From: a virus
Lineage: Duplodnaviria > Heunggongvirae > Uroviricota > Caudoviricetes
Direction: 5' to 3' (one strand)
Length of the DNA stretch: 40,186 bases
Virus record (IMG/VR): IMGVR_UViG_2728369554_000009
Span: 1 to 40,186 of that record
Part shown: positions 3,678 to 36,801 of the stretch, piece after piece
Layout of the letters: each line of letters opens with the position of its first letter
Position numbering within the stretch: the first letter of the stretch is position 1
Made by a program: the position numbers and the translations under genes
The notes under the pieces: model-generated
The model's input: only the letters and a program-made list of their open reading frames with translations
What the model was told of the DNA's origin: nothing
Databases searched by the model: none

Positions 3678-4495
3678 ACATACATATCCTGTTTACGTGC
3701 CCAGTCAGGGCGTTTAATAATTTCCACGCCGCCCCATTCATCATTTATGCGGCATTCGTGATAGGTATTCAGATCCCGGCGGAACAGAGCGTGCCCGGCA
3801 TCGACATCCGGCGCATCCAACTCGAACACGCGTACCGGATACCGACCACAATCAATGCTTTCGCTCACGGCAAGAAAGAAAAAACCATGCGGTTGACCAG
3901 TAACCCTCGTTGCGCCTTCGCGGTACATTGCGTCCTGCACGTGGTAGCGGAATTCCTCGATGTGGCGTGCAAAACGGTCCATATCTGCAACCTTTTTCAC
4001 GTCGACGATCACGTTGTGCTCGTTCAGCCATTTGTCTGGACGAATTCGGCACAACTCACCCGTCTCTTCATCGTTCCAGTACATTGATGCTTCGCAGTAA
4101 CCAGGTGCTTCCAACATCCAGCGTGCCGCCGGATGAGCCATTGCGCTATCACGCATGAGCTCAAGTTTTCGCCACTGCTCGACATCAAGTACCGTAATAC
4201 CCATATCCGCCACATCACGAAGAAATGCTTCTTCGTCAGCTTTACCTTGTTTTGTCCGACGATCGAATTTCGGTGACACGATGAAGCGTTTGTCGAATTC
4301 TCCAGGTTCCAGAAGCAGGCAGTGCAATGCGGTTCCCATATCCAATGCAGACTTTTTCTCTTCGTCTTCTGGTGCTGCCTGAACCCATTTAAGAAGCGCC
4401 GGATTCTTGGCAACCATGTCCAGTTGCGACTTACTCACGCCGTCACCTGCGTGGTAGTCTTCGTTGCTGATGCCGAAATAAATTCCCGGTTTCAT
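3674..4495 (-). CDS. PD-(D/E)XK (YqaJ/RecE-C-like) recombination exonuclease, partner of Bet
   Basis: 273 aa. 'DGVSKSQLD', 'EASMYW..D..GELCRIRPD' and 'IVDVKK' (D..E.K nuclease core). Coupled on both sides by 4-nt overlaps. Confidence 0.7.
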   Translation of the reverse strand: MKPGIYFGISNEDYHAGDGVSKSQLDMVAKNPALLKWVQAAPEDEEKKSALDMGTALHCLLLEPGEFDKRFIVSPKFDRRTKQGKADEEAFLRDVADMGITVLDVEQWRKLELMRDSAMAHPAARWMLEAPGYCEASMYWNDEETGELCRIRPDKWLNEHNVIVDVKKVADMDRFARHIEEFRYHVQDAMYREGATRVTGQPHGFFFLAVSESIDCGRYPVRVFELDAPDVDAGHALFRRDLNTYHECRINDEWGGVEIIKRPDWARKQDMYV

Positions 4496-4791
4496 GCCGC
4501 GTCCTTCTGTCCATCAAGCTGATCCGCCAGATCCCAGCGGGCGATAATTGCCATTGCCTCTCGCCGATAGGCATCCATCAGTTCTTCGAACTCAGGGCTG
4601 TCTTTAGCAGCCTCCAGTACTTCCTGACGAACGCCTTTGCCTGTTACAACGTCGAAAGTTGATGACAGTTGATGAAGTCGGATGCTCTCAATCAGTTCAA
4701 CTTGTCGGTCATATAGCTGTTCTGACAGGTGGTAGTCCTTGTCGAATGCCTGCATGATTTTTTGAAGATTTTTCTGCTGATTAACGTTCAT
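4492..4791 (-). CDS. hypothetical early protein (99 aa from MNVNQQ)
   Basis: Preferred ATG at 4791 is preceded by GGGAGGG (7-nt spacing); the ORF track's ATG at 4806 lies inside that SD. Stop overlaps the exonuclease start. Confidence 0.5.
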   Translation of the reverse strand: MNVNQQKNLQKIMQAFDKDYHLSEQLYDRQVELIESIRLHQLSSTFDVVTGKGVRQEVLEAAKDSPEFEELMDAYRREAMAIIARWDLADQLDGQKDAA

Positions 4792-4965: not shown

Positions 4966-4980
4966 TTACCGTTGAGGTAA
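4966..4980. promoter_or_regulatory. operator copy TTACCGTTGAGGTAA, overlapping the start of the leftward early promoter (pL-like); extra half-site TTACC at 4953
   Basis: Perfect TTACC-N5-GGTAA palindrome. On the minus strand it sits just downstream of TTGACA(5006..5001)-CATAAT. Confidence 0.7.
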
Positions 4981-5027
4981 TGATTATGCGTATCTGGTTT
5001 GATGTCAATAGATATGAGTTAAAAAAA

Positions 5028-5042
5028 TTACCCATAAGGTAA
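5028..5042. promoter_or_regulatory. operator copy TTACCCATAAGGTAA upstream of the leftward early promoter (pL-like) -35
   Basis: Perfect palindrome between the repressor terminator and the minus-strand TTGACA. Confidence 0.7.
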
Positions 5043-5054
5043 TCTTGCTGGCAA

Positions 5055-5078
5055 TAAAAAAGCCGCCATGAGGCGGCT
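5055..5078 (-). terminator. rho-independent terminator of repressor transcript
   Basis: Minus strand: AGCCGCC-ucau-GGCGGCU followed by UUUUUU (the + strand A-run is 5055..5060). Confidence 0.7.
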
Positions 5079-5099
5079 TACTTACTGAAAAATATGATT

Positions 5100-5684
5100 T
5101 TATTGTTTGTTTTTTTCGTTCTGGCTGATGACAAATTCAATGTAACTTTCGATCTTTGCCTTCTCTGTTTCGGGTAACAATGCGTAGCGCGAGCGGTCAT
5201 AGTTGATAGTCGCAGGGTCGTGCGGGTGAATCAGTAATTCATAGCCGTGACGCCCGAATGCGGATGCAACATTCTCCAGGGTGGAAATGGAAACGCTGAC
5301 CTCATTGTTTAACAGGCGGCTGATTGTCACCTGGGCGACGCCGGATGCGCGGTGAAGTTTTCCCTGTGTTGAAAGGTAGCGGCTTTCGCTCATCCAGCGT
5401 TCCAGGTTGTGAGCCGCCAGCTGACCAATGTCGCTTGGGCCGACAGGCTGAAAACCTTCCTGAGAAAGCGAGCGATCGATATCAAGCCAGTTACGGGGTT
5501 TATTGGCGGCAGCTTCAATTTTTCGCGCAACCTGGTCGCCGATAACCTTCTTGCCAAGAGCCCAGCGGTTTACCAGATTTGCCTGAGTTCCAAGTTTTTC
5601 TGCCATCCGCGTCTGAACACCATTGAATTCACGGTCGATCAAGTCGTTGAGATTTTGCCTGCGGACGTCCTGGATACTTTTCAT
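5100..5684 (-). CDS. phage repressor, HTH protein without LexA/S24 peptidase domain
   Basis: 194 aa. 'GVQTRMAEKLGTQANLVNRWALGKK' HTH and a second HTH-like 'GVAQVTISRLL'. No Ala-Gly / Ser..Lys autocleavage motifs. Divergent from the cro-like gene, with three operators in between. Confidence 0.65.
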   Translation of the reverse strand: MKSIQDVRRQNLNDLIDREFNGVQTRMAEKLGTQANLVNRWALGKKVIGDQVARKIEAAANKPRNWLDIDRSLSQEGFQPVGPSDIGQLAAHNLERWMSESRYLSTQGKLHRASGVAQVTISRLLNNEVSVSISTLENVASAFGRHGYELLIHPHDPATINYDRSRYALLPETEKAKIESYIEFVISQNEKNKQ

Positions 5685-5739
5685 TTTCTGGAAAATCGCC
5701 TCATATATGAATCAGTAGATGATTCAATTTAAAGCAATA

Positions 5740-5754
5740 TTACCCAACAGGTAA
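5740..5754. promoter_or_regulatory. operator TTACCCAACAGGTAA (OR-like site 1)
   Basis: Perfect palindrome in the repressor/cro intergenic region. Confidence 0.7.
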
Positions 5755-5756
5755 AT

Positions 5757-5771
5757 GCACCTCATAGGTAA
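5757..5771. promoter_or_regulatory. operator GCACCTCATAGGTAA (degenerate left half)
   Basis: Right half-site perfect, left half 3/5. Two bp from the previous site (17-bp centre spacing). Confidence 0.5.
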
Positions 5772-5787
5772 CTATCCTTGATTTTTG

Positions 5788-5802
5788 TTACCTTATGGGT
5801 GA
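5788..5802. promoter_or_regulatory. operator TTACCTTATGGGTGA (degenerate right half) inside spacer of rightward promoter
   Basis: Lies between TTGATT (5779..5784) and a TATTTA/GAATAT -10 upstream of cro-like ATG 5839. Confidence 0.5.
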
Positions 5803-5838
5803 ATATTTATTATCTGAAATAAATATCAGGCAATAGCT

Positions 5839-6069
5839 ATGAGCGATAACGGACATTTCGATTTCAAAAAGCACTGGCTTGCACTTACTCCGGATGAGCG
5901 TGAAGCCTTCGCACAGGAAGCCGGAACGACGAGTCACTATATCCAGACTCACTTAACAGGTAAGCGAAAAATGCCAGGTAAAGTATTGATGAATGGGCTT
6001 TTTAAAGCCTGTAAAACAAGACAATGGCTGCGCTCAAAAGCAGAACTGGCATACTTCTTCTACTCATGA
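5839..6069 (+). CDS. Cro-like small HTH regulator
   Basis: 76 aa. 'AFAQEAGTTSHYIQTHLTGKRKMP' is an HTH of the YdaS/Cro-like type. First gene downstream of the operator cluster. Confidence 0.6.
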   Translation: MSDNGHFDFKKHWLALTPDEREAFAQEAGTTSHYIQTHLTGKRKMPGKVLMNGLFKACKTRQWLRSKAELAYFFYS

Positions 6070-6090
6070 TATCCAGCTACAACCCTCTGT

Positions 6091-6114
6091 AGACCGCCAC
6101 CCGGCGGTCTTTTC
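6091..6114 (+). terminator. intrinsic terminator after cro-like gene
   Basis: AGACCGCC-accc-GGCGGTCT followed by TTTTCAT. Confidence 0.55.
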
Positions 6115-6124
6115 ATATCTATTC

Positions 6125-6139
6125 GTACCTCAAAGGTAA
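6125..6139. promoter_or_regulatory. operator-like GTACCTCAAAGGTAA (1 mismatch)
   Basis: Immediately after the terminator and upstream of the replication genes. Confidence 0.45.
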
Positions 6140-8093: not shown

Positions 8094-8108
8094 TTACCCA
8101 ATGGGTAA
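8094..8108. promoter_or_regulatory. operator TTACCCAATGGGTAA
   Basis: Perfect palindrome. Confidence 0.65.
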
Positions 8109-8155
8109 CAAAATGTTCTTAGATCTATTGATTTCGTGTCTTATGTGGTTTTTAA

Positions 8156-8170
8156 TTACCTTAGAGGTAA
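8156..8170. promoter_or_regulatory. operator TTACCTTAGAGGTAA fused to -10 (TTTAAT|TACC) and overlapping the RBS of the next gene
   Basis: TTGATT-N17-TTTAAT promoter. The right half-site GAGGTAA doubles as the SD 4 nt before ATG 8174. Confidence 0.65.
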
Positions 8171-10538: not shown

Positions 10539-10553
10539 TTACCACAACGGTAA
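10539..10553. promoter_or_regulatory. operator TTACCACAACGGTAA fused to -10 TACTAT upstream of terminase genes
   Basis: Perfect palindrome. Same TACTAT|TACC context as the copy at 32168. Confidence 0.6.
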
Positions 10554-10570
10554 CTATTACCACGGTGGTT

Positions 10571-11167
10571 ATGATGCCTGCTGAACCTAAAACCTATAAA
10601 CGCAAATCAACGCAATTTAAGCCACTAACAGCAATGCAGGAGGCTTATTGCCAGTCATACATCAAAACGCCTGAAAACCAGACTCAGGCAGCGATTAACG
10701 CAGGATTCTCCCCAAATACAGCGGCAGTTAAAGCCAGTGTCATGATGCGCGATGAACGCATTCAAAAACGGATTGCCGAGTTGATGGAGGAGCGCAACAA
10801 ACGAATGCGCGTCAGTGCTGATTACGTTCTCATGCGCCTGGTGGAGATCGACCAGATGGACGTGATCGACATCCTCAACGACGATGGGAGCCTTAAGCCA
10901 ATCCGCGAGTGGCCGAAAATCTGGCGCACTACGCTTAGCGGCTTTGATCTGTCATCGACCATCATGAACATGAACGAGGATTCGATAGAGACAATCCTCA
11001 AAAAAATTAAATGGCCTGACAAGGTGAAGAACCTCGAACTGATTGGTAAGCACGTCGACGTCAAAGCATTCAAAGAACGCCTGGATGTTAATGTGAATGT
11101 GACAATTGCTGATCGCATAGCAGCAGCCAGGAAGCGACTCAAAGAACGTCAGGATGGTAATCAGTGA
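10571..11167 (+). CDS. terminase small subunit
   Basis: 'AYCQSYIKTPENQTQAAINAGFSPNTAAVKASVMMRDERIQKRIAE' resembles the Terminase_2 family. Start at ATGATG after GGTGG. Confidence 0.7.
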   Translation: MMPAEPKTYKRKSTQFKPLTAMQEAYCQSYIKTPENQTQAAINAGFSPNTAAVKASVMMRDERIQKRIAELMEERNKRMRVSADYVLMRLVEIDQMDVIDILNDDGSLKPIREWPKIWRTTLSGFDLSSTIMNMNEDSIETILKKIKWPDKVKNLELIGKHVDVKAFKERLDVNVNVTIADRIAAARKRLKERQDGNQ

Positions 11168-13803: not shown

Positions 13804-13818
13804 TTACCTGAAAGGTAA
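13804..13818. promoter_or_regulatory. operator TTACCTGAAAGGTAA upstream of head genes
   Basis: Perfect palindrome. Confidence 0.6.
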
Positions 13819-25833: not shown

Positions 25834-28800
25834 TGCCGTTCTATCCTGTATCTGAATCAAACAATAACGGATTTATTTCTGCTGGTCTCGCCATTCCTGA
25901 ACCTGATGAACAGAGTTTTGATGTGCATCCGCCAGAAGGTAAGAACCCTGAACCTCGTCCCAAAGAGCCTTCATTGCTTGCCGCAGCAATACGACAGAAC
26001 AATATTCTGGCTGGTTTTTTCCGTCCTGCCAGACAGTTTGAACCGGTCGAAGGTTATAACCCATATGCTGATAAAAATGAGTTGCACGGTTATGAATACT
26101 GGGGGGCGAAATTTGCAGATTCCCGATCGCCAGAGGAAACGGCGTGGATTAAGCAGCAGATAGATGATGAAAATGAAGACAGACGTTTATTGTCTGATGC
26201 TGGCGTAGTTGGAACTCTTGCCAGTATTGCTGCAGGAATGGATCCGGTTACCGTTGCGTCAATGTTTATCCCCGGTGCTCAAGGAGGGGCACTGGCGCGT
26301 ATTGGCTCACAGATTGCGATTGGTGCTGCCGGTACAGCATTAAGCGAGGTTGTGCTGAATAATCAGCAAATAACACGCTCATGGGGTGAAAGTGCCGCTC
26401 ACGTTGCAGCGGGTGCGATGATGAGCGGCGTGTTTGCCAGTGCTGGTGTTGCGCTTTCGCCATCCGTCCGGGCTGCAGCCACGCGTGAGGTTGCTGATGC
26501 TCTTGATAATATGAGCATTACATCAGCGACTGACAGGGCTGCCGCTTCGCTTTCTGATGGTGGTAGTGTTGGTGCTATGAAAATTGATACAGCGACTCTG
26601 GATGATTTAACCCCTGTTTCCGGTGGGTGGGTTGGAAAGGCTGCATGGAAAGCAGGGAGCTATCTTACTCCTTTGACAAGGTTAATGGAGTCTCCGTCCA
26701 AGACAGTGCGAAAAACAACGCTGGAGTTAGCCGAAAATAATTTCACCCTTAAAGGAAATGAAAGGGGGATTGAAACACCGGTAGCTGTAGAAACCCGTAC
26801 ACGTGGATGGCAGCGTGAAGAAGCTGCTGTTGTTGTCGGAAATAAACAGGCATACGCAAAGTATAAAGCTGATGGTGGTGACATGAGTTTTGATTCATTT
26901 CGTCAGCAGGTTGGGAATGCTATGCGAAGCGGTGATGTGCATGCTAATCCTGTTGTTCAGGAAACGGCGCAGGCGATGCGAACTGTATTAAATCGGGTGA
27001 AAGTTGAAATGCAAAAGCTTGGTTTATTGCCGCCAGATGAAGAACTGAAAGCATTAGGCCAGGCAAGCTATTTCCCACGCATATATAAAGTTGGAAAAAT
27101 AATCAGTGAACGCGATAAATTTCGACGTATTTTGGTTGACTGGTGGTCGAGAGGAAATAAAACACTGGATCCTGAGGATGCTGAAATTGCAGCGGATATC
27201 GTAATTAATAAAATTACTGGTGCTAAGGTTCCACAGGATTTTGTCAGCGTATTTTCTGTAAAAGCCGCAGGTAGTACGAAAGAAAGAACATTAAATGTTC
27301 CTGATAGTCTTATCGGTGATTATCTTGAAAGTGATGTGAATTACGTGCTGCAACGTCATATCCGTGAAGCGGCAGCAGAAATTGAGTTGATGAGAACATT
27401 TGGCAAACGAACTATGACTGAGCGTCTGCAATTAATTGAGGACGAATATGACAGTCTGTTACGGGAAGTGCCTGAAAAAATAAAGGCGAAATATGACGAA
27501 AGTGTGGCAAATCTGAAAGCACGTTATGAGAGCAATGGTGAAGTTGTTCCTCAGGGTAAACTCGATTCATTAATGCGAAAGTACGAAAAGGAATTACGGA
27601 AAGAACAGTCCAGACTTTCAAAATCAAGAGCAAATGATCTCAGAGACATAACAGCATTACGCGATCGTCTTGTTGGTACATATGGGATGCCTGATGATCC
27701 GTCTTCGTTTTTTGTTCGTGCTGGCGCTTTTCTGCGGGATGTGAACTTCACGACCAAACTCGGTGGAATGACAGTATCAGCTATTCCAGATCTGGCCAGA
27801 GGGGTTATGGTTAATGGTTTCCGTAACACCATGAAAGGCTATGCTTCTCAGATATCCCAATCACCGGCATTTAAGGCCAGCAAAGAAGATATGTTGAAGA
27901 TGGGGATTGGATTGGAAGCTGTACTACATTCACGTTCTCGTGCAATTGGTGATCTTGTTGACAGTTCTTCCAGGACAACAGCAGTCGAAGCAGGAATGGA
28001 GCGAATTACTGATGCCTTCGGCAAGCTGACACTCATGGATCGATTTAATGACATAAACAAATCCATGAACGGAATGCTCACGTCAGACGGTATTTTGTCC
28101 GGTGCGTTTTCTGCACGTCGCATGGCAAAACTCGGTATCAACGACAATATGGCTGCGCGTATTCGCAGTGAGTTCGAGAAACATGGTGAGGTAATTGATG
28201 GATGGCACATTGGTAACTTTGATAAATGGGACGATCAGTACGTTGCCGGAGTATTCCAGTCAGCGGTTCTGAAAGACGTTAATAACACTATCATCACCCC
28301 CGGTATTGGTGACACACCTTTATGGGCGAGTACTCCAATGGGGCGAACGATATTTCAGTTTAAATCATTCACAACGGCTTCATACAACCGTGCGCTACTT
28401 GGTGGGTTACAGGAAGGAACTGCGCAATTTTATTATGGCACTGCATTTCAGATTGCTCTTGGCTCACTGGTCTATGCGCTTAAAGAAGCATCGAAAGGGA
28501 AAAATGTTGACTGGTCACCAGAGAAGCTGGTGCTTGAGGGTATAGATAGATCCGGTATTCTTGGGCCATTGATGGAATATAACAACATGGCTGAAAAGGC
28601 GACTGGTGGTGCTGTTGGGCTGGGGGCTTTATTTGGCACTGGCACACAGTCCAGGTATGCCAGTCGTGGATTCGTAGGATCTCTATTCGGACCGTCATTT
28701 GGTCTTGCGGATAGCATCATTGATGTGACCTCAGGAGTGTTGAATGGTGATGCCGGTGATCGTATTGTGCATAATGTCCGAACCCTGATACCCGGCAATA

Positions 28801-28853
28801 ACCTGTTCTGGATTGCGCCACTAATAAACCAAGTGGATCCGGTGATGCGTTAA
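25833..28853 (+). CDS. large internal core / DNA-ejection protein (gp16-like)
   Basis: 1006 aa, coupled (TAAATAATG). Confidence 0.65.
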   Translation: MPFYPVSESNNNGFISAGLAIPEPDEQSFDVHPPEGKNPEPRPKEPSLLAAAIRQNNILAGFFRPARQFEPVEGYNPYADKNELHGYEYWGAKFADSRSPEETAWIKQQIDDENEDRRLLSDAGVVGTLASIAAGMDPVTVASMFIPGAQGGALARIGSQIAIGAAGTALSEVVLNNQQITRSWGESAAHVAAGAMMSGVFASAGVALSPSVRAAATREVADALDNMSITSATDRAAASLSDGGSVGAMKIDTATLDDLTPVSGGWVGKAAWKAGSYLTPLTRLMESPSKTVRKTTLELAENNFTLKGNERGIETPVAVETRTRGWQREEAAVVVGNKQAYAKYKADGGDMSFDSFRQQVGNAMRSGDVHANPVVQETAQAMRTVLNRVKVEMQKLGLLPPDEELKALGQASYFPRIYKVGKIISERDKFRRILVDWWSRGNKTLDPEDAEIAADIVINKITGAKVPQDFVSVFSVKAAGSTKERTLNVPDSLIGDYLESDVNYVLQRHIREAAAEIELMRTFGKRTMTERLQLIEDEYDSLLREVPEKIKAKYDESVANLKARYESNGEVVPQGKLDSLMRKYEKELRKEQSRLSKSRANDLRDITALRDRLVGTYGMPDDPSSFFVRAGAFLRDVNFTTKLGGMTVSAIPDLARGVMVNGFRNTMKGYASQISQSPAFKASKEDMLKMGIGLEAVLHSRSRAIGDLVDSSSRTTAVEAGMERITDAFGKLTLMDRFNDINKSMNGMLTSDGILSGAFSARRMAKLGINDNMAARIRSEFEKHGEVIDGWHIGNFDKWDDQYVAGVFQSAVLKDVNNTIITPGIGDTPLWASTPMGRTIFQFKSFTTASYNRALLGGLQEGTAQFYYGTAFQIALGSLVYALKEASKGKNVDWSPEKLVLEGIDRSGILGPLMEYNNMAEKATGGAVGLGALFGTGTQSRYASRGFVGSLFGPSFGLADSIIDVTSGVLNGDAGDRIVHNVRTLIPGNNLFWIAPLINQVDPVMR

Positions 28854-28874
28854 TCAATATTTATTGGAGTTCTT

Positions 28875-29402
28875 TCAATGGCTGTTTATGGCTTCTAAAG
28901 AAGCTTCTGCACTTATCGGCAAAGCAATAGTATCCTTGTTAGATGTGCTATTGCTTTCCAGAACTATGGAAATCCAATCCTCTTGGTTTTCATTAATTGT
29001 GCTGACAGCCATGATAGCATTCAAATCATTTTTATATATTTCTGATCGAATAAGACCTTTCCTGAATAATTTAGTTAAGTTTTCAGCTATCGACATCGCA
29101 CGAATGCTAACTTTACTAAGCTCAATTGCGTCACTACCTGCGACTTTGGCGTGTTGAGAAAGAGCCATCAAAGCTATATGTGAAAATGTTTCTTCTTTTG
29201 AAAAACCGTTACTTAAAGACATGAGTGATACACCAGCTCCGTATGGGGTGAGTTTATATCCTGATACATTCAGTGCATGCTCTACAAAGGTAAGATCATC
29301 AGTTGTAGAAACATGCATATCGTTACTTTTTTGTTTTTTTGCAATAAATAAAAAAACAAAATTAATAATCACGATGCCGACGATGATTAAGAAAACTTCC
29401 AT
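28875..29402 (-). CDS. single-pass membrane protein, superinfection-exclusion/abortive-infection candidate
   Basis: 175 aa with N-terminal TM 'VFLIIVGIVIINFVFLFIA'. AT-rich. Own operator-bearing promoter and AGGA SD. Confidence 0.5.
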   Translation of the reverse strand: MEVFLIIVGIVIINFVFLFIAKKQKSNDMHVSTTDDLTFVEHALNVSGYKLTPYGAGVSLMSLSNGFSKEETFSHIALMALSQHAKVAGSDAIELSKVSIRAMSIAENLTKLFRKGLIRSEIYKNDLNAIMAVSTINENQEDWISIVLESNSTSNKDTIALPISAEASLEAINSH

Positions 29403-29422
29403 TGCTTTTCCTCACAATAACA

Positions 29423-29437
29423 TTACCTTAAAGGTAA
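29423..29437. promoter_or_regulatory. operator TTACCTTAAAGGTAA
   Basis: Perfect palindrome upstream of the membrane-protein gene. Confidence 0.6.
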
Positions 29438-29462
29438 TATTTTGTGCTAATGTGATCAAGTG

Positions 29463-29861
29463 TTAAGTGTATACCTCCTGCTGTTCAGTCGTGATTTTAC
29501 CCGGCAACACCTTTTTAGCTTTGCGCGGGTTAACCACATGGCCTTTAGTCCAGTACTCGTAGAGCACATCATCACACTCTTCCTGATACTGGATTACCTT
29601 ATCGCGGATTTCAGGGCGGACTTTGTTTGGACTGATGCTGTTCAACCAAGCTGCCAATTTTCGTAAAGCCATACAAATCATGGCTTGCACCCCTCCGGCA
29701 GAAGGTATGGTGATTTCCACCATACCCTTCGAGAAGCGTTGAGAAATCTTCTTATGTTGAGATTTCCAGTCTAGACCCATTCCCTCAACGATAGGTTTCA
29801 TTGGGGTGTACGGTTCGCCGTTGTGATTGACAACATAAAGTTCTACGCCGTGGAATGGCAC
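29463..29861 (-). CDS. Rha/KilA-N (ORF6N)-like antirepressor-family protein
   Basis: 132 aa from GTG. 'GVELYVVNHNGEPYTPMKPIVEGMGLDWKSQ..AMICMALRKLAAWLN'. Weak RBS. Confidence 0.45.
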   Translation of the reverse strand: MPFHGVELYVVNHNGEPYTPMKPIVEGMGLDWKSQHKKISQRFSKGMVEITIPSAGGVQAMICMALRKLAAWLNSISPNKVRPEIRDKVIQYQEECDDVLYEYWTKGHVVNPRKAKKVLPGKITTEQQEVYT

Positions 29862-30008
29862 GTTGATAGTAGTGACAAGTTTGAAACATCGCTGGTTGTA
29901 AGCCAGCAGATGCTCGTTATTTTACATCGCGGTACAATTTCTCGCTGGTGGCTCTTTTATACACCTTAACCAAATATGGTTGATTTTGATATTTATCTTC
30001 GTCTATTA

Positions 30009-30023
30009 TTACCTTTTCGGTAA
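30009..30023. promoter_or_regulatory. operator TTACCTTTTCGGTAA fused to -10 TATTAT (module A promoter)
   Basis: TTGATT-N18-TATTAT|TACC. Confidence 0.65.
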
Positions 30024-30290
30024 ATTTACATCGCACTCCTCTTGTGCCATAGTAATCGGGCACTGGCAAAATCCAGTGCCGGGATTGGTCTCCCGGATTA
30101 CTACAGAGGCACATATGCCGCATAAGCGGTTTTTTTATGTGTAAAGCGCACCTATTCTATGGTGGGCTGTGTGGGGGCACCGAAAGGTGCGCCGGGTTCC
30201 TTTGTAGCCGGTAAGACCAACTCTGCACAGTTCACCACCATCTGATTGGTCTCAGCGGTGGTGATTAACCTAACTACAAAGGTGATCGCC
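30024..30290 (+). ncRNA. conserved structured 5' leader of antirepressor A (hairpins plus internal terminator 30118..30136)
   Basis: First 95 nt are identical to the inverted copy at 33197..33103. Hairpins 30059..30080 and CCGGGA-ttggtc-TCCCGG 30079..30096. CCGC-ataa-GCGG followed by 7 T. GNRA hairpin GCACC-gaaa-GGTGC with a compensatory variant in copy B. 8-bp stem TCACCACC/GGTGGTGA. Confidence 0.5.
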
Positions 30291-30983
30291 ATGAATACCA
30301 AACCTTCCATCTTTTCCTTTGAGTCATCCTGCCAGATCCGTATGTTCATGATTGACGGAGAACCTTGGTTTGTCACCAAAGATGTGTGCAATGCTTTGAA
30401 TATTGATGTTACACAAGCGAGAAAACTTGATAAAAAAGGCTGGAACAAAAAGGGGCTGTATTCAATACAGACCCCTGGTGGAATACAAGAACTATCCATC
30501 GTTTCAGAATCAGGTCTCTACATCCTTATTCTGCGTTGCAAAGAGGCAATGACTGAGGGAACGAGAGCATTCAGATTTCTTGAATGGGTTACAGGTGAGG
30601 TTCTTCCTCAGATCCGCCGCACCGGAAGTTACATTAAAAACTCGCTCCCGCAGGAAGAACGCATAAAGATGGTTGCCGACCAGGTAGCCAACGCCACGGC
30701 GTCAGCAGTAATGCAGGCGATGAAGATAGAGAACAAAACCTACAGTGCCCCGCTGAAGCCCGGCTACCGCAGCCTGATTCATTCTCCGTCTGGTGTTCTC
30801 GGCCTGACGGAGAACTCACTGCTGATGAATCTGCTGAACCAGTTACAGGAAGACGGGCACGATGTATCGGGCGCGGCGGCGGAGCTGACCACCATGTTCT
30901 GCTACATCGTCGGTGTGAGCAAATGCCTGCGTGATATCCAGACGCACGCGGAATACATCAACGACAAGGCAGGGTTCTTCTGA
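30291..30983 (+). CDS. antirepressor A: Bro-N domain plus shared antirepressor C-terminal domain
   Basis: 'MIDGEPWFVTKDVCNALNI..ELSIVSESGLYILILRC' is Bro-N. The C-terminal 85 aa is nearly identical to the C-terminus of gene 32255..32911. SD AAGGTGA. Confidence 0.7.
   Translation: MNTKPSIFSFESSCQIRMFMIDGEPWFVTKDVCNALNIDVTQARKLDKKGWNKKGLYSIQTPGGIQELSIVSESGLYILILRCKEAMTEGTRAFRFLEWVTGEVLPQIRRTGSYIKNSLPQEERIKMVADQVANATASAVMQAMKIENKTYSAPLKPGYRSLIHSPSGVLGLTENSLLMNLLNQLQEDGHDVSGAAAELTTMFCYIVGVSKCLRDIQTHAEYINDKAGFF
30742..30983. repeat. inverted repeat arm 1, about 97% identical to rc(32255..32496)
   Basis: Direct comparison of both strands. Encodes the shared antirepressor C-domain. Confidence 0.8.
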
Positions 30984-31020
30984 CAGAACGGCGGCACAGG
31001 GACGTGCAAAACGAAACTAG

Positions 31021-31032
31021 CGTGACATGTCA
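31021..31032. promoter_or_regulatory. 12-bp palindrome GTGACATGTCAC (copy 3)
   Basis: Read in the sequence. Confidence 0.5.
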
Positions 31033-31057
31033 CAGGCCGCTTTCGCGGCCTTGTTTT
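31033..31057 (+). terminator. intrinsic terminator after antirepressor A
   Basis: AGGCCGC-tttc-GCGGCCT followed by TGTTTTT. Confidence 0.65.
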
Positions 31058-31218
31058 TAACGAATGCCACCGCCACCCGGGCGGGAATCCGCAGAACGCC
31101 CACCGCAGCGGGAGCCGTCAGCAGCAGTGTCGCTGTCGTGCTGACAACGACCGGCAAAGGCCTGAGTTGAAGCTACCAGAGACAACAAAACGAACAGTGC
31201 AGCAAATGCTTTTTTCAT
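31057..31218 (-). CDS. small secreted Cys-containing peptide (signal peptide MKKAFAALFVLLSLVASTQAFA)
   Basis: 53 aa from the internal ATG of the 77-aa ORF. Predicted mature part is about 31 aa with 2 Cys. Confidence 0.4.
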   Translation of the reverse strand: MKKAFAALFVLLSLVASTQAFAGRCQHDSDTAADGSRCGGRSADSRPGGGGIR

Positions 31219-31299
31219 TGTGAAATTTCCATCTATAAACCACCTCAATGTGGCGTCAATGAGTGTAGCACTGACTTTTGTTTCGTCCATAAAAAACTA

Positions 31300-31812
31300 C
31301 TATGCAGGCTTTTTGGATTTGTACGAATAATCCCACGGATAAACATTTCTACTAAGTGGAGCTGTATTCGTTCGTTCATGAAATAATTTTGTGAAATTCA
31401 ATACGGAATCCATCCAAACTTTTGCGTTAGCTTTGGTGTGTGCGGGCGGGTCCCAATAAGCTAGTAAGGCTGCATCTCTTATTTCATTGACTGCATATAT
31501 GAGATATGCGTTACTGGTTGGTTTTGGCCTGTAATTTCCTTGTTCATCAATCAATCCATATGACCACTCATCCCAACACTGTTCAGTACATGAGTATGAA
31601 TATGATGCATATTCACCAATATTGACATGAACCTTTCTGAGATGGAAGCCTAATACTTCCTCTGGTCTTTCAAAAAGAGTATCTTTTCCCAGATCAGGAT
31701 GATGACCATGACGCCAGTGTTGTTTAAAAGCATCTTTTAGCGAAATCAGAAAGTCATCAGTTTTAAACTCACCAGTAGGTATAACCTTCCCGCTATACTC
31801 ACTCAAAAACAT
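31300..31812 (-). CDS. YafO-family toxin-like protein with N-terminal extension
   Basis: 'FHLRKVHVNIG' and 'AYLIYAVNE..AALLAYWDPPAH' align to E. coli YafO 'FERVAHIHLA' and 'AHLVYCQG..AWLLIAILKPEPH' (recalled from memory). SD GGAAGAGGA. 14-nt overlap with the upstream gene. Confidence 0.55.
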   Translation of the reverse strand: MFLSEYSGKVIPTGEFKTDDFLISLKDAFKQHWRHGHHPDLGKDTLFERPEEVLGFHLRKVHVNIGEYASYSYSCTEQCWDEWSYGLIDEQGNYRPKPTSNAYLIYAVNEIRDAALLAYWDPPAHTKANAKVWMDSVLNFTKLFHERTNTAPLSRNVYPWDYSYKSKKPA

Positions 31813-32125
31813 CGAATTCCTCTTCCTTCATATGCGTTTCTAATGAGTTAAGCTGGCGGAAAGATATCTCTTTTGATTCTGCAGATGAGAGCTTTTTTAT
31901 CCGCTTTATATTCTTTGTGATAGGAATAGACATTGTATGCACATCAGCGGATGCTCTTGGCTTTGTGCTGATAAAAATATGGCGCAATGCCGCATTTTCA
32001 CTATTGAACGAGCCAATAGCTGATTTACGTGCTACAACCTTACCAGTAAAAATACGACTCTTGCTACGCTTTGCATGAGTTCCGCTTCTTACCGGACCTC
32101 TCATCACGAATCCAAGTTTTGTCAT
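31799..32125 (-). CDS. basic 108-aa partner protein (candidate non-canonical antitoxin)
   Basis: SD GGAG 8 nt before ATG 32125. Acidic C-terminus. No similarity to Phd/YefM-type YafN. Confidence 0.45.
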   Translation of the reverse strand: MTKLGFVMRGPVRSGTHAKRSKSRIFTGKVVARKSAIGSFNSENAALRHIFISTKPRASADVHTMSIPITKNIKRIKKLSSAESKEISFRQLNSLETHMKEEEFDVFE

Positions 32126-32167
32126 CTTTAATCTCCGGTAAGTTACAGGTATAAAATAAAAACAGGT

Positions 32168-32182
32168 TTACCTTTAAGGTAA
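32168..32182. promoter_or_regulatory. operator TTACCTTTAAGGTAA overlapping -10 of TA-like operon promoter
   Basis: Minus strand: TTGCAG-N17-TACTAT|TACC. Confidence 0.65.
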
Positions 32183-32254
32183 TAGTACGCTATTCACCCC
32201 CGGTCTGCAATCTGTACAGAATTATTTAAAGGCACATCCCTGTGCCACCGCCCG

Positions 32255-32496
32255 TCAGAAGAACCCTGCCTTGTCGTTGATGTACTCCGCGTGGGTCTGG
32301 ATATCACGCAGGCATTTGCTCACACCGACGATGTAGCAGAACATGGTGGTCAGCTCCGCCGCCGCGCCCGATACGTCGTGCCCGTCGTCCTGTAACTGGT
32401 TCAGCAGATTCATCAGCAGTGAGTTCTCCGTCAGGCCGAGAACACCAGACGGCGAATGAATCAGGCTGCGGTAGCCGGGCTTCAGTGGGGCGCTGT
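32255..32496. repeat. inverted repeat arm 2
   Basis: As above. The arms flank about 1.27 kb containing the secreted peptide and the YafO-like pair. Confidence 0.8.
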
Positions 32497-32911
32497 ATTC
32501 TTTTTTGTCTTCCAGCTTGATCGCCTCCATTATGGCGGGCATGAAGCCTGACAAGACCTTCTCCACTTTTGTTTCTTGTTGTCTTAAACGTTTCTCGCAT
32601 TCAATGAAGTAGCGTCGCACCTGGCGACCTTTTTCGTTACGCTCGACCATCGCCAGCTCTTTGGCTGTATCAAGGGTGAGGTGGTACTCTTTGCGGTTGT
32701 GGCCGCCTCTACCAGATGTTTGCTTTCCCAAATTGGAAAGCAAAATATAGTCTTGATTTTCAATGAATTCGTATTCTGATATGCGATTTGTAATCCATGC
32801 TGCAAACACCTTTTTAACACCTAAAAAAGCGTGCAGATCGCGGGCATTACAAAGTAGGGCTGTTTCGTTAGATATAGTGCCGTTGAATACGGGGATGAGT
32901 TGAGCGTTCAT
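32255..32911 (-). CDS. antirepressor B: AntA/KilA-N-type N-domain plus shared antirepressor C-terminal domain
   Basis: '[29 protein letters not shown]' N-domain. C-terminal 85 aa is about 97% identical to antirepressor A. Confidence 0.7.
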
Positions 32912-33182
32912 GATGGCGTCTCCACTTAGCGAATTACATCACCACCGCTGAGACCAATCAGATGGTGGTGAACTGAACGGAGTTGGTCTTACCGGCCTAA
33001 GTGGTACCGGCGTCCTTTCGGACCCCCATTCAGCCCACCATAATTCTGGCATGACTGTGCTATACGCATAAAAAAACCACGTCTGGCGTGGTATGCGCCA
33101 CTTAGTAATCCGGGAGACCAATCCCGGCACTGGATTTTGCCAGTGCCCGATTACTATGGCACAAGAGGAGTGCGATGTAAAT
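32912..33182 (-). ncRNA. conserved structured 5' leader of antirepressor B (inverted paralogue of 30024..30290; internal terminator at 33070..33092)
   Basis: ACCACG-ccaga-CGTGGT followed by 7 U. The stem is retained despite sequence divergence from copy A. Confidence 0.5.
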
Positions 33183-33197
33183 TTACCGAAAAGGTAA
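33183..33197. promoter_or_regulatory. operator TTACCGAAAAGGTAA (module B promoter: minus strand TTGCAA-N17-TATATT|TACC)
   Basis: Perfect palindrome. Confidence 0.65.
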
Positions 33198-33228
33198 ATA
33201 TAAGCACTCCACTTGGTAATTGCAAACC

Positions 33229-33486
33229 TTATCTGGTTTGTTTTCGTAATTGTTCGGCACAATAGTCGAGATGTGTTTGCAGATCCTGCATAGACATCTG
33301 TGAGCTGGTGACGTAGTTAATCAGTGCAGTCAGTTCGGCAAGTGGGCCATCGACATTAAATCCATCCTTATCGAGATCCCGGAGTAATTTCATCAAGTGC
33401 GATCCCTCCACCAGTGACCTGACGCCTCCCGGCGTGTGAATCCTTTCGGTAAATCCGTCTTCCAGTGGATAGTGATACTGCTGCAT
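33229..33486 (-). CDS. stand-alone antirepressor C-terminal-domain protein (85 aa), LexA-controlled
   Basis: 'PLEDGFTERIHTPGGVRSLVEGSHLMKLL..DGFNVDGPLAELT..DLQTHLDY' parallels the shared C-domain '[50 protein letters not shown]'. SD GGAG. LexA box 22 nt upstream of the ATG. Confidence 0.55.
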   Translation of the reverse strand: MQQYHYPLEDGFTERIHTPGGVRSLVEGSHLMKLLRDLDKDGFNVDGPLAELTALINYVTSSQMSMQDLQTHLDYCAEQLRKQTR

Positions 33487-33507
33487 CTTATCTTCTCCAT
33501 GCAATAA

Positions 33508-33523
33508 CTGTATATTTATACAG
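33508..33523. promoter_or_regulatory. LexA (SOS) box CTGTATATTTATACAG
   Basis: Exact CTGT-N8(AT-rich)-ACAG 16-mer. Overlaps the TATAAA -10 candidate of the minus-strand gene. Confidence 0.7.
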
Positions 33524-33562
33524 TAGCAAATAATTTGTTTGCTATCCAGCACGTTTTGCAAA

Positions 33563-33577
33563 TTACCTGAAAGGTAA
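33563..33577. promoter_or_regulatory. operator TTACCTGAAAGGTAA in spacer of tailspike promoter
   Basis: TTGCAA-[operator]-TATCTA. Confidence 0.6.
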
Positions 33578-33681
33578 TATCTATTCGTATTTACAGCCTT
33601 TCTATCCATATGTGGTTTTCCAGGTAATAGAATAACCAGATATGCGGCGCAACGGGTGCTGCGACTATCTGGAGATTTAAC

Positions 33682-36600
33682 ATGACGGTCTCAACCGAAG
33701 TTGACCACAACGAATACACCGGTAACGGCGTTACGACATCGTTTCCGTATACTTTTCGAATTTTCAGAAAATCAGACCTGGTTGTTCAGGTGTCTGACCT
33801 GAACGGAAACGTAACAGAATTGGTTCTGGATACCGGTTATACGGTAACTGGGGCGGGCACTTATAGTGGCGGTTCTGTGGTTCTTCCGTCTCCGCTTGCT
33901 ACTGGATGGCGAATTACGATAGATCGTGTGCTTGATGTAGTGCAGGAGACAGACCTTCGCAATCAGGGAAAATTTTTCCCCGAAGTGCATGAAGATGCCT
34001 TTGACTACCTGACGATGCTGATCCAGCAATGTTTTGGGTGGTTCAGACGTGCATTGATGAAACCATCTTTGCTTGCAAAATATTACGATGCAAAGCAAAA
34101 CAAAATTTCTAACCTTGCAGATCCATCATTTGAGCAGGACGCTGTAAATAATCGCTCAATGCGTAATTATGTCGATGCTGCAATCGCCGGGGTTGTTGGT
34201 GGTTTTGGTTGGTTTATTCAGTATGGTTCTGGGGCTGTGTACCGAACGTTCCAGGATAAAATGCGTGATGCTATTAGCCCCAAAGATTTTGGAGCTGTTG
34301 GTGATGGTATAAATGACGATTCCACTGCAATAAGCGCGTGCCTTGAAGCCTCATCTCCAGGTTATAAAATTGACGGATTAGGGCTTACTTTTAAAGTATC
34401 AACTCTTCCGGATGTCAGTCGATTTAAAAATGCTCGTTTTTTATTTGAGAGAATACCGGGCCAGCCTCTTTTTTATGCTTCTGAAGATTTTATCCAGGGA
34501 GAGTTATTTAAAATTACAGATACACCGTGGTACAACGCCTGGACGCAGGATAAAACGTTTGTATATGACAATGTCATCTATGCGCCTTTTATGGCTGGAG
34601 ACCGCCATGGTGTAAATAACCTCCATGTTGCATGGGTTCGCTCAGGAGATGACGGGAAGACCTGGACAACGCCGGAATGGCTTACAGATTTACATGAAAA
34701 CTATCCCACAGTTAACTATCACTGCATGAGTATGGGGGTTGTCAGAAATCGCCTTTTTGCTGTAATTGAGACGCGGACCGTGAGCGGAAATAAACTGCAG
34801 GTTGCAGAGTTGTGGGATCGCCCAATGAGTCGCAGCCTTCGCGTTTATGGTGGTATAACGAAAGCAGCAAATCAGCAAGTCGCTTATATTCGCATTACTG
34901 ATCACGGATTATTTGCTGGTGATTTTGTCAACTTCTCAAACTCTGGTGTTACAGGTGTTACCGGGAATATGACGGTGACTACTGTTATTGATAAAAATAC
35001 TTTTACAGTTACGACGCAAAATACCCAGGATGTGGATCAGAATAACGAGGGTAGATACTGGAGTTTTGGTACATCATTTCACTCGTCACCATGGAGAAAA
35101 ACCAGTCTTGGAACTATTCCTTCTTTTGTTGACGGAAGCACTCCTGTTACTGAGATTCACAGTTTTGCGACGATTAGCGATAACAGTTTTGCTGTTGGCT
35201 ACCATAATGGTGATATTGGTCCACGCGAGCTTGGGATACTCTATTTCTCTGATGCTTTCGGTTCTCCTGGTAGCTTTATTCGCAGACGCATACCTGCAGA
35301 ATATGAGGCGAATGCATCTGAGCCATGTGTAAAATATTATGATGGCATTCTGTATCTGACGACCAGGGGGACATTAAGTACTCAACCCGGTAGTTCATTG
35401 CACAGAAGCTCTGATTTAGGTACATCATGGAATTCTCTTCGCTTCCCAAATAATGTTCATCACTCAAACCTTCCTTTTGCCAAAGTTGGCGATGAGCTGA
35501 TTATTTTTGGCAGTGAGCGCGCATTTGGTGAGTGGGAAGGAGGAGAACCTGATAACCGTTATGCAGGAAATTATCCAAGAACATTTATGACCAGAGTTAA
35601 CGTCAATGAGTGGAGTCTGGATAATGTAGAGTGGGTTAATGTTACTGATCAGATTTATCAGGGCGGAATAGTTAACTCTGCGGTTGGTGTTGGTTCAGTT
35701 TGTATCAAAGACAACTGGCTGTACTACATTTTCGGTGGGGAAGACTTTCTAAACCCATGGAGCATAGGGGATAACAACAGAAAATATCCTTATGTTCACG
35801 ATGGTCACCCGGCTGATTTATATTGTTTCAGGGTGAAAATCAAACAGGAAGAATTTGTTTCAAGGGATTTTGTCTACGGAGCCACTCCTAACAGAACGCT
35901 TCCTACTTTTATGTCGACGTCAGGCGTGAGGACGGTTCCTGTACCCGTTGATTTCACAGATGATGTTGCCGTCCAGTCACTGACTGTCCATGCAGGTACA
36001 TCAGGACAAGTTCGCGCGGAAGTCAAACTTGAGGGTAATTACGCCATTATTGCGAAGAAAGTACCGTCTGATGATGTTACCGCTCAGAGATTAATCGTTA
36101 GCGGCGGTGAAACAACGTCTTCAGCAGATGGTGCAATGATAACGTTGCATGGTTCCGGAAGCAGTACTCCACGTCGCGCGGTATATAACGCACTCGAACA
36201 TCTTTTTGAGAACGGAGATGTTAAACCTTATCTTGATAATGTAAATGCTCTTGGTGGTCCGGGAAACAGGTTCTCGACAGTTTATCTTGGCTCCAATCCT
36301 GTGGTTACCAGTGACGGAACATTAAAGACAGAGCCGGTCTCTCCTGACGAAGCATTGCTGGATGCCTGGGGTGACGTCAGGTATATCGCTTATAAATGGC
36401 TGAACGCTGTCGCTATAAAGGGGGAAGAAGGGGCGAGGATACATCATGGTGTAATCGCGCAGCAACTTCGTGATGTTCTTATTTCTCACGGACTCATGGA
36501 AGAAGAAAGCACAACATGCCGCTATGCCTTTCTTTGCTATGACGATTATCCCGCAGTATATGATGACGTCATTACTGGCCAAAGGGAAATGCCGCTGACT

Positions 36601-36801
36601 GATAATGAAGGGAGCATCATTGTTGATGAGGATGATAATCCAGTGATGGTAATGGAAGACATCATTGAGCGCGTTGAAATAACGCCAGCAGGATCTAGAT
36701 GGGGGGTCAGACCTGATCTCTTATTCTATATCGAGGCAGCATGGCAGCGCAGAGAAATGGATAAGATAAAAGAGCGGATTCAGTCTCTGGAAGAACGTTA
36801 A
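33682..36801 (+). CDS. tailspike: T7 gp17-like N-terminal adaptor, sialidase-like beta-propeller (endosialidase-like), C-terminal S74 intramolecular chaperone
   Basis: 'NEYTGNGVTTSFPYTFRIF' N-terminal motif. Asp-boxes 'SGDDGKTW' and 'SSDLGTSW'. C-terminal 'GVIAQQL..HGLMEEESTTCRYAFLCYDDYP' auto-chaperone. SD GGAG. Confidence 0.8.
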   Translation: MTVSTEVDHNEYTGNGVTTSFPYTFRIFRKSDLVVQVSDLNGNVTELVLDTGYTVTGAGTYSGGSVVLPSPLATGWRITIDRVLDVVQETDLRNQGKFFPEVHEDAFDYLTMLIQQCFGWFRRALMKPSLLAKYYDAKQNKISNLADPSFEQDAVNNRSMRNYVDAAIAGVVGGFGWFIQYGSGAVYRTFQDKMRDAISPKDFGAVGDGINDDSTAISACLEASSPGYKIDGLGLTFKVSTLPDVSRFKNARFLFERIPGQPLFYASEDFIQGELFKITDTPWYNAWTQDKTFVYDNVIYAPFMAGDRHGVNNLHVAWVRSGDDGKTWTTPEWLTDLHENYPTVNYHCMSMGVVRNRLFAVIETRTVSGNKLQVAELWDRPMSRSLRVYGGITKAANQQVAYIRITDHGLFAGDFVNFSNSGVTGVTGNMTVTTVIDKNTFTVTTQNTQDVDQNNEGRYWSFGTSFHSSPWRKTSLGTIPSFVDGSTPVTEIHSFATISDNSFAVGYHNGDIGPRELGILYFSDAFGSPGSFIRRRIPAEYEANASEPCVKYYDGILYLTTRGTLSTQPGSSLHRSSDLGTSWNSLRFPNNVHHSNLPFAKVGDELIIFGSERAFGEWEGGEPDNRYAGNYPRTFMTRVNVNEWSLDNVEWVNVTDQIYQGGIVNSAVGVGSVCIKDNWLYYIFGGEDFLNPWSIGDNNRKYPYVHDGHPADLYCFRVKIKQEEFVSRDFVYGATPNRTLPTFMSTSGVRTVPVPVDFTDDVAVQSLTVHAGTSGQVRAEVKLEGNYAIIAKKVPSDDVTAQRLIVSGGETTSSADGAMITLHGSGSSTPRRAVYNALEHLFENGDVKPYLDNVNALGGPGNRFSTVYLGSNPVVTSDGTLKTEPVSPDEALLDAWGDVRYIAYKWLNAVAIKGEEGARIHHGVIAQQLRDVLISHGLMEEESTTCRYAFLCYDDYPAVYDDVITGQREMPLTDNEGSIIVDEDDNPVMVMEDIIERVEITPAGSRWGVRPDLLFYIEAAWQRREMDKIKERIQSLEER

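Follow-up and report, generated by a model that had tools for sequence, protein, structure and literature searches.

Two predicted immI-type antirepressor cassettes with IsrK and C4 RNAs, in convergent orientation, in an epsilon15-type phage of Escherichia coli

Virus record IMGVR_UViG_2728369554_000009 (Caudoviricetes; 40,186 nucleotides (nt), analysed whole and called the window in what follows) is an epsilon15/phiV10-type temperate phage of Escherichia coli. Between the virion and tailspike genes of this podovirus lie two antirepressor genes, ant-A and ant-B, each behind a structured leader RNA; modules A and B are convergent paralogous transcription units (30009-33197). We conclude, with a probability of about 0.85, that they are two cassettes of the P1 immI type, each with an IsrK decoy RNA, a C4 antisense RNA and an ant gene, combined with a repressor/antirepressor (Rep/Ant) switch of the SPC32H type. 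The observations that carry this conclusion are membership of the RNAs in known families, complementarity of their sites, covariation of these sites in other phages and homology of the proteins. Coordinates are collected in Table 1.

The window was scanned with all Rfam families (gathering scores: isrK RF01394, 50 bits; C4 RF01695, 45 bits; c4-a1b1 RF03163, 46.7 bits). Four matches reach gathering level, every one within the two leaders: isrK at 74.7 bits in A and 67.7 bits in B, and C4, over model positions 1-87 of 87, at 78.6 and 61.2 bits. In both copies of C4 the stem P1 encloses P2 and P3, and P2 bears a GAAA tetraloop on different stems (GCACC/GGUGC in A, GUCC/GGAC in B). Directly 3′ of IsrK hairpin 2, whose loop holds site a1, lies site b1, and both are complementary to the a′ and b′ segments of the adjacent C4. 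The isrK match lies directly upstream of C4 in 11 of 12 further loci, and a blastn search with the leader matches 225 phage records.

An initial annotation, made from the letters of the window, had picked out several of these pieces, which can now be named. The GAAA hairpins with compensatory change are C4 stem P2. The terminators, retained in the two copies but unlike in sequence (GCCGC-ATAA-GCGGT and T7 in A, ACCACG-CCAGA-CGTGGT and T7 in B), were both recovered in a terminator scan and form the 3′ end of IsrK. The 8-base pair (bp) stem, present in A and with a counterpart in B, is an alternative pairing of the 3′ strand of C4 P1. The decamer shown in the loops of two hairpins, GATTGGTCTC, occurs four times (at 30083 and 30244, and on the minus strand at 32950 and 33114) and makes up the a1 and a2 targets of C4 a′. 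A short terminated RNA and a small-RNA layer comparable in role to P1 c4 had been anticipated, in agreement with the IsrK/C4 layout. The same annotation held the leader to be unrelated in sequence to P1 c4; by Rfam scores and layout it belongs to the same family. The likeness it drew to P22 sar survives as a loose analogy and nothing beyond. By sequence comparison the leader RNA is the known C4/IsrK cassette and no new kind of RNA, and the cassettes are probably functional.

Two Rfam families cover the upstream RNA: isrK (RF01394), which belongs to no clan, and c4-a1b1 (RF03163), which belongs to clan CL00128. Their matches fall on the same bases in the window (30047-30136 and 33070-33159), in P1 (318-412 of the stretch compared) and in Gifsy-1 (1482-1571 of its stretch), and the families appear to describe a single element redundantly. 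Weinberg et al. 2010 described both the c4 and the a1b1 motifs (PMC2864571). The a1b1 motif consists of two hairpins upstream of c4, with a1 within them and b1 just 3′, and an earlier proposal for P1 had a1/b1 compete with a2/b2 for C4 (both in the supplement of PMC2864571).

The a sites are common to the two modules. The a′ segment is AAGACCAAC in each, and its core AAGACCAA pairs with the a-site core TTGGTCT; a2 starts 1 nt past the C4 match. The b sites differ in concert. The C4 P3 loop that forms b′ is CCTTTGTAG / CCUUUGUAG in A and CCACTTAG / CCACUUAG in B; b1-A, CTACAGAGG / CUACAGAGG, pairs with b′-A through one G-U, and b1-B is CTAAGTGG / CUAAGUGG. Both b2 sites are perfect complements of their own b′ and overlap the Shine-Dalgarno sequence of their own ant gene. 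Duplex energies were computed for the loops alone; whole-sequence C4-target duplexes ignore internal structure, were uninformative and were replaced. On this basis b′-A binds b1-A at -14.1 and b2-A at -12.0 kcal/mol, b′-B binds b1-B at -12.6 and b2-B at -12.4 kcal/mol, and the four cross pairs range from -3.6 to -5.3 kcal/mol (b′-A on b2-B, -4.2; b′-B on b2-A, -5.3). Because the b′/b1/b2 triplets are different and internally matched, each C4 should act mainly on its own ant gene. The heteroimmune phages P1 and P7, which differ by 2 nt at each of a1, b1, b′, a′, a2 and b2, provide a precedent for reading the b-site differences as specificity.

The same pattern is found elsewhere. A scan of viral contigs for the a′ core yielded 120 stretches, 44 of them with C4 homologues, which represent 19 (b′, a′) types. 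The site most complementary to b′ in every type covers the ribosome-binding site, 29-53 nt downstream of C4, and a further one is found 47-117 nt upstream of C4. Across the 19 types b′, b1 and b2 change together at these fixed positions, and likewise a′, a1 and a2: a′ AAGACCAA goes with TTGGTCT at a1/a2, ACGCCAA with TTGGCGT, and AAGACTAA with TTAGTCT. Mean energies are -12.1 for cognate versus -6.1 for non-cognate b2 sites, and -11.7 versus -7.0 for b1; 12 of 16 loops pair best with their cognate target, and the exceptions are near-identical loops.

Formal pair counts were made on an alignment of 14 diverse leaders, with slid controls. The C4 fold is 94.3% paired, against about 40% in the slid controls, and both partners have changed in 17 pairs. 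Pairing reaches 95.8% for a1:a′, 95.8% for a′:a2 (3 doubly changed pairs) and 95.5% for the alternative hairpin that displays a2 in its loop; for b1:b′ it is 73.6%, limited by alignment register, with 7 of 9 pairs doubly changed. Other loci show compensatory changes in the a2 hairpin (CCACCGCC/GGCGGTGG and CTGCCACC/GGTGGCAG). Structural covariation in homologues had been named beforehand as a check, and its absence as grounds to refute a structured leader; it is present, and that objection falls.

Both full leaders fold far better than shuffled sequences (z = -5.0 for A, -4.5 for B). The predicted minimum-energy fold pairs a1b1 with a′b′ in cis over about 30 bp and frees the P1 3′ strand, upon which the a2 hairpin forms; it corresponds to ‘structure A’ of the Gifsy-1 paper (PMC4825925). 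Such a fold could belong to a pure cis attenuator, in which transcription of ant hinges on the terminator, the structures further downstream serve only to stabilise or process the mRNA and no RNA acts in trans, and the retention of a strong terminator in both copies despite different sequences would also suit it. That explanation leaves the covariation between b2 and the C4 loop unaccounted for. Moreover, P1 c4 acts in trans as an immunity factor (P1 annotation; supplement of PMC2864571), as does Gifsy-1 IsrK (PMC4825925), and we regard a pure cis attenuator as improbable.

A second alternative is the model proposed for Gifsy-1: a silent read-through mRNA whose orf45 ribosome-binding site is opened by IsrK in trans, with orf45 translation coupled to that of ant and the C4-like fold not serving as antisense. 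The genetics and biochemistry done there support it (PMC4825925), and the window leaders are homologous to that locus. Here orf45 is conserved in neither module; in A the equivalent AUG opens 28 codons, which close 48 nt short of ant, and in B it opens 3. Homologous loci have small open reading frames (ORFs) of anything between 2 and 81 codons after the terminator, or none, which bears out the earlier view that the ORFs overlapping the leader are not conserved and the leader is non-coding. Since orf45 is not conserved and the leader ORFs vary, leader-peptide coupling is unlikely in these modules, and it is simpler to suppose that b′:b2 pairing directly covers the ant ribosome-binding site. In addition, b2 lies across the ant Shine-Dalgarno sequence in every case, and it covaries with the C4 loop. 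The compensatory mutants of the Gifsy-1 study, G28A/C162U and G31A/C159U (PMC4825925), when placed on the Gifsy-1 sequence fall exactly in a1 (UUGGCGU) and a′ (ACGCCAA), and are themselves a1:a′ pairs. For the window modules we consider the Gifsy-1 model unlikely, if somewhat less so than the cis attenuator. A conserved leader peptide was considered as a separate candidate and rejected, the ORFs spanning 0-81 codons and the orf45 frame closing early in both modules.

Three inverted-repeat blocks relate the modules in a repeat search: 30004-30103 / 33103-33202 (100 nt, 98%), 30207-30265 / 32938-32996 (59 nt, 95%) and 30728-30984 / 32254-32510 (257 nt, 95%). The inverted pair of antirepressor modules in the initial annotation is therefore present, with small numerical corrections. 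Its identical first 95 nt of the leaders are indeed identical (95/95, 30009-30103), and no more than 44 nt of them are RNA, the remainder being operator and promoter. Over their last 242 bp the genes, also given as identical, agree at 235 of 242 positions (97%). The leader was put at about 270 nt; its transcribed part measures about 231 nt in module A (30060-30290) and, in module B, 235 nt (33146-32912). A putative operator-promoter does precede each module, with the same TG-extended promoter in both copies and the palindrome at the -35 element. A consensus scan found no promoter for C4 of its own between the terminator and C4. No sar-like antisense promoter was found in the leader; the sole minus-strand site (30376-30348, inside ant-A) is at chance level, and sar has no Rfam match in the window. 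A weak 4-bp anti-terminator involving b1 was dropped as not conserved in other loci.

Ant-A and Ant-B are mosaics of unrelated N-terminal domains, Bro-N in A (PF02498; 51.4 bits, cut-off 25.6, 1.8e-13) and AntA in B (PF08346; 91.8 bits, cut-off 27, 4.2e-26), on a common C-terminal domain whose DNA is 95% identical over 257 nt. This domain is homologous to the Rep-binding Ant of SPC32H (residues 149-225 of Ant-A against PDB 5D50_E, E 9e-14), in keeping with the earlier proposal of two effector heads on one repressor-targeting module. Its stand-alone paralogue, an Ant of 85 amino acids (aa), matches 5D50_E with E 4.1e-47 (phrog_450); the ORF list gives 126 aa for this gene, and the start preceded by a Shine-Dalgarno sequence is the ATG at 33486. 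Homology to SPC32H Ant extends over the whole fold of about 85 aa. The resident Rep, a helix-turn-helix protein of 194 aa, matches PDB 5D50_A over its full length (E 1.4e-41), has HTH_3 as its only Pfam domain and is without an S24 peptidase domain; from these matches it is presumed to be both the target of the antirepressors and the protein that binds the palindromes. In SPC32H, tetrameric Ant takes apart Rep, which binds DNA as a tetramer (PMC9638917).

Fifteen copies of the palindrome TTACC-N5-GGTAA are present in the window, with 0.8 expected (4966-6139, 8094-8170, 10539-10571, 13804-13818, 29423, 30009, 32168, 33183 and 33563). Two copies lie between rep and a cro-like gene (5740, 5788), and one stands before each of five transcription units at 28.9-33.6 kb; the palindromes front scattered operons, including that of the terminase small-subunit gene. 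Similar in plan to the C1 operators scattered over P1, the sites look like a dispersed network of operators for the SPC32H-type Rep. A near-consensus LexA box lies 20 nt before the ATG of the 85-aa ant gene. LexA control of ant-A and ant-B was considered and rejected, the only convincing LexA box being the one that precedes the 85-aa gene.

From these parts a regulatory scheme can be proposed, in which RNA processing, the direction of regulation, binding of Rep to the palindromes and the induction cascade are drawn from homology and placement. The operator at -35 would probably be bound by the SPC32H-type Rep. PisrK would give IsrK, a 77-nt RNA with a1 and b1 that ends at the intrinsic terminator, and read-through would give C4, a tRNA-like antisense RNA of about 85 nt that bears a′ and b′. 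Once released from the read-through transcript, C4 would pair through a′/b′ with a2/b2 and block ant translation; IsrK, or a1/b1 in cis, would pair with a′/b′, titrate C4 and relieve the block, and the ratio of terminated to read-through RNA would set the threshold for antirepressor production. The SOS response would induce the small Ant, Rep would be lost and both PisrK promoters would be derepressed, upon which the C4-gated Ant-A and Ant-B could reinforce or widen anti-repression.

Several points weigh against two P1-type cassettes working in this way. The c4-a1b1 model reaches 39.9 bits (E 9e-8) in both copies in a permissive scan, under its gathering score of 46.7 (P1, 51.0; Gifsy-1, 48.1 bits); the match at 30047-30099 overlaps the 5′ part of isrK, and the same bases are covered by the above-threshold isrK match. 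The predicted cis fold of the full leader would disrupt the C4 fold, and either conformer may dominate in the cell. To make C4, transcription would have to run through a terminator that looks strong (stem plus U7). The identical a/a′ sites make some cross-talk between the modules possible. The C-terminal domain of Ant-A and Ant-B shares no more than about 39% identity with the stand-alone Ant of this phage, so that their target could be the repressor of another phage. Binding of Rep to TTACC-N5-GGTAA is read from the placement of the sites, and IsrK and C4 of this phage are predicted from the sequence. Finally, the Gifsy-1 study explained regulation by orf45 translation and IsrK-aided ribosome binding, and not by C4 antisense (PMC4825925).

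A more far-reaching and quite tentative idea, which we think has a rather small chance of being right, is that the cassettes form a split pair. The shared a/a′ sites would keep some coupling, and the separate b/b′ sites would let each C4 gate only its own fused antirepressor; a Rep-binding Ant fold on different Bro-N and AntA heads might then provide different targets, or different thresholds or timing, and the inverted leaders might let the cargo segment between them flip. A by-product of this idea would be that IsrK is the a1b1 anti-antisense decoy of C4, which would bring together two bodies of literature that were found to be kept apart.

Table 1. Features of the two modules and of associated genes (window coordinates; a dot where no strand is assigned)
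Feature	Position	Strand	Remarks
Rep repressor	5100..5684	-	194 aa, helix-turn-helix
Truncated antirepressor remnant	29463..29861	-	P22_AR_N only (Pfam, 5e-44); divergent from module A
Palindromic operator TTACCTTTTCGGTAA, module A	30009..30023	.	Adjoins -35; putative Rep operator
PisrK-A promoter	30025..30053	+	TTTACA, 17 nt, CATAGT, TG-extended; ends 7 nt before isrK model position 1 (30060)
IsrK-A	30060..30136	+	Hairpin 1; hairpin 2 with a1 30083-30092; b1 30101-30109; terminator 30117-30136
C4-A antisense RNA	30155..30242	+	Stem P1; P2 with GAAA loop 30177-30190; P3 loop b′ 30199-30207; single-stranded a′ 30213-30221
Alternative a2 hairpin A, TCACCACC/GGTGGTGA	30232..30264	+	8 bp; arms 30232-30239 / 30257-30264; a2 (30244-30253) in loop
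b2-A, CTACAAAGG / CUACAAAGG	30274..30282	+	Perfect 9-nt complement of b′-A; overlaps ant-A Shine-Dalgarno
ant-A	30291..30983	+	Bro-N N-terminal domain; SPC32H-Ant-like C-terminal domain (residues 149-225)
Terminator-like hairpin 3′ of ant-A	31034..31051	.	Terminator scan
Cargo between convergent ant genes	31057..32182	-	Small secreted/transmembrane-like ORF, YafO-like toxin, 108-aa protein, own operator
ant-B	32255..32911	-	AntA N-terminal domain; C-terminal domain as in ant-A
b2-B, CTAAGTGG / CUAAGUGG	32922..32929	-	Perfect complement of b′-B; overlaps ant-B Shine-Dalgarno
a2-B hairpin	32939..32971	-	a2 at 32950-32959
C4-B antisense RNA	32961..33045	-	P2 GTCC-GAAA-GGAC 33023-33012; b′ 33004-32997; a′ 32990-32982
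IsrK-B	33070..33146	-	a1 33123-33114; b1 33105-33098; terminator 33092-33070
PisrK-B promoter and operator TTACCTTTTCGGTAA	33153..33197	-	-35 33181-33176; -10 33158-33153; operator 33197-33183
Stand-alone 85-aa Ant	33229..33486	-	Paralogue of the Ant-A/B C-terminal domain
LexA box TACTGTATAAATATACAGTT and palindromic operator	33506..33577	-	Box 33525-33506; operator 33563-33577; upstream of 85-aa ant

Some match to the region is found in 1259 of 5426 complete E. coli genomes (about a quarter), and many relatives have two convergent cassettes around variable cargo. Partners differ in a′, b′ or both in all 12 of the 12 two-module loci examined. We do not claim selection for differing partners from so small a sample, chance giving the same result about 1 time in 7 by our estimate (about eight distinct combinations at the observed type frequencies). 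Compared with window positions 28800-33800, the segment between the leaders is inverted relative to its flanks in E. coli MS 196-1, and in MLI109 module B stands in the position of module A. The inversion and the swap are evidence that the inverted leaders act as recombination sites over evolutionary time. On the strongest form of this idea the leaders would be mainly recombination substrates or mosaic joints for inversion and module exchange, one or both cassettes being decaying relics, and the truncated ant pseudogene beside module A would fit in as well. We give this very little credence, for both copies have complete promoters, terminators, C4 folds and matched a/b triplets, and the differences between them are compensatory, not degenerative.

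A further C4 variant, with b′ CCTACTAG and a′ ACGCCAA, is seen in stretches of E. coli MLI109 (4463-4595) and MS 196-1 (5816-5948). Two genes follow it as a unit, a 507-bp ORF and an ORF6N-domain gene that this ORF overlaps, an arrangement that recalls the icd-ant coupling of P1.

Among the neighbouring genes, the P22_AR_N remnant is 95.7% identical to part of the ant gene of phage CUS-3, and in related prophages of E. coli PGAP marks the same gene as a pseudogene that lacks its C-terminus. Beside the remnant, at 29916-29930, stand 15 nt that partly repeat the PisrK -35 region, which suggests an old recombination scar. The cargo comprises the YafO-like toxin gene (31300-31812; a weak Pfam match of 20.1 bits, under the cut-off), the gene for the 108-aa protein (31799-32125; phrog_5933) and a palindromic operator of its own (32168-32182); other E. 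coli strains have different genes in this position. The tailspike gene (33682-36801) encodes an epsilon15-type N-terminal adaptor, the complete K1 endosialidase domain set and an S74 chaperone domain. From this domain make-up the phage is probably specific for the K1 capsule.

The analysis removes a false lead, since the supposed new leader RNA is the P1 c4 system. In its place stands a natural example of two C4 circuits with different b specificities in one phage, and swaps between them could show how much of the specificity resides in b and how much in a. The genetics of Gifsy-1 IsrK and the a1b1/c4 model of P1 describe the same pairing. An explicit statement that IsrK is equivalent to the a1b1 decoy was not found in the searchable literature, where the two are only listed side by side, and Rfam places isrK outside the C4 clan. 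Homology further suggests that the conserved C-terminus of many Bro-N and AntA antirepressors in E. coli prophages is an SPC32H Ant fold, which, if true, gives these proteins a concrete repressor-binding module. The points of some interest are the two b specificities in one genome, the Ant fold on Bro-N and AntA heads, and the equivalence of IsrK with a1b1.

Among known systems, P22 immI is likewise a secondary immunity region beside the tailspike gene in which a small RNA limits antirepressor translation. It differs in that sar is read from the other strand, across the ribosome-binding site of ant, and has no homology with C4 or IsrK.

The immI regions of P1 and P7 have the same order and spacing of every RNA element and the same C4 fold (RF01695). 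In the P1 annotation the order of immI is operator Oc4, which covers the -35 element, a1, b1, C4, a2 (4 nt beyond C4) and b2, which precedes the first start codon. On P1 DNA the isrK model matches the a1b1 hairpins together with a terminator-like hairpin between b1 and C4, at 35 bits. P1 C4 is processed from the operon transcript, with RNase P making its 5′ end. The differences are that P1 has icd, which is missing from the window, where b2 lies directly over the ant ribosome-binding site; that Ant1/2 are unrelated to the window antirepressors, which join Bro-N or AntA to an SPC32H-Ant domain; and that the P1 repressor is C1, whereas the window has an SPC32H-type Rep and two cassettes per genome.

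The isrK-orf45-anrP locus of Gifsy-1 shares isrK (79 bits), followed by C4 (69 bits), a2 and a Bro-N-type antirepressor, and an intrinsic terminator that gives a short IsrK and a read-through mRNA. IsrK binds Hfq there, its short isoform raises anrP translation about 100-fold, and the approximately 80-nt STnc1160 depends on PisrK (PMC4825925). STnc1160 is located where C4 lies, and orf45 starts inside the C4 5′ strand; the Gifsy-1 paper (PMC4825925) makes no mention of P1 or RNase P. Gifsy-1 differs in its orf45 coupling and in a and b sequences unlike those of the window, where the cassette is duplicated, inverted and placed behind a Rep-type palindrome.

The SPC32H Rep-Ant pair (PDB 5D50, 5D4Z) comes from the same epsilon15-like phage type and shares with the window the homologous Rep and 85-aa Ant and the LexA box before ant. 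Accessible descriptions of SPC32H make no mention of fusions of Ant to Bro-N or AntA. In the window, by contrast, the Ant fold is also fused to the C-termini of Bro-N and AntA proteins that lie under IsrK/C4.

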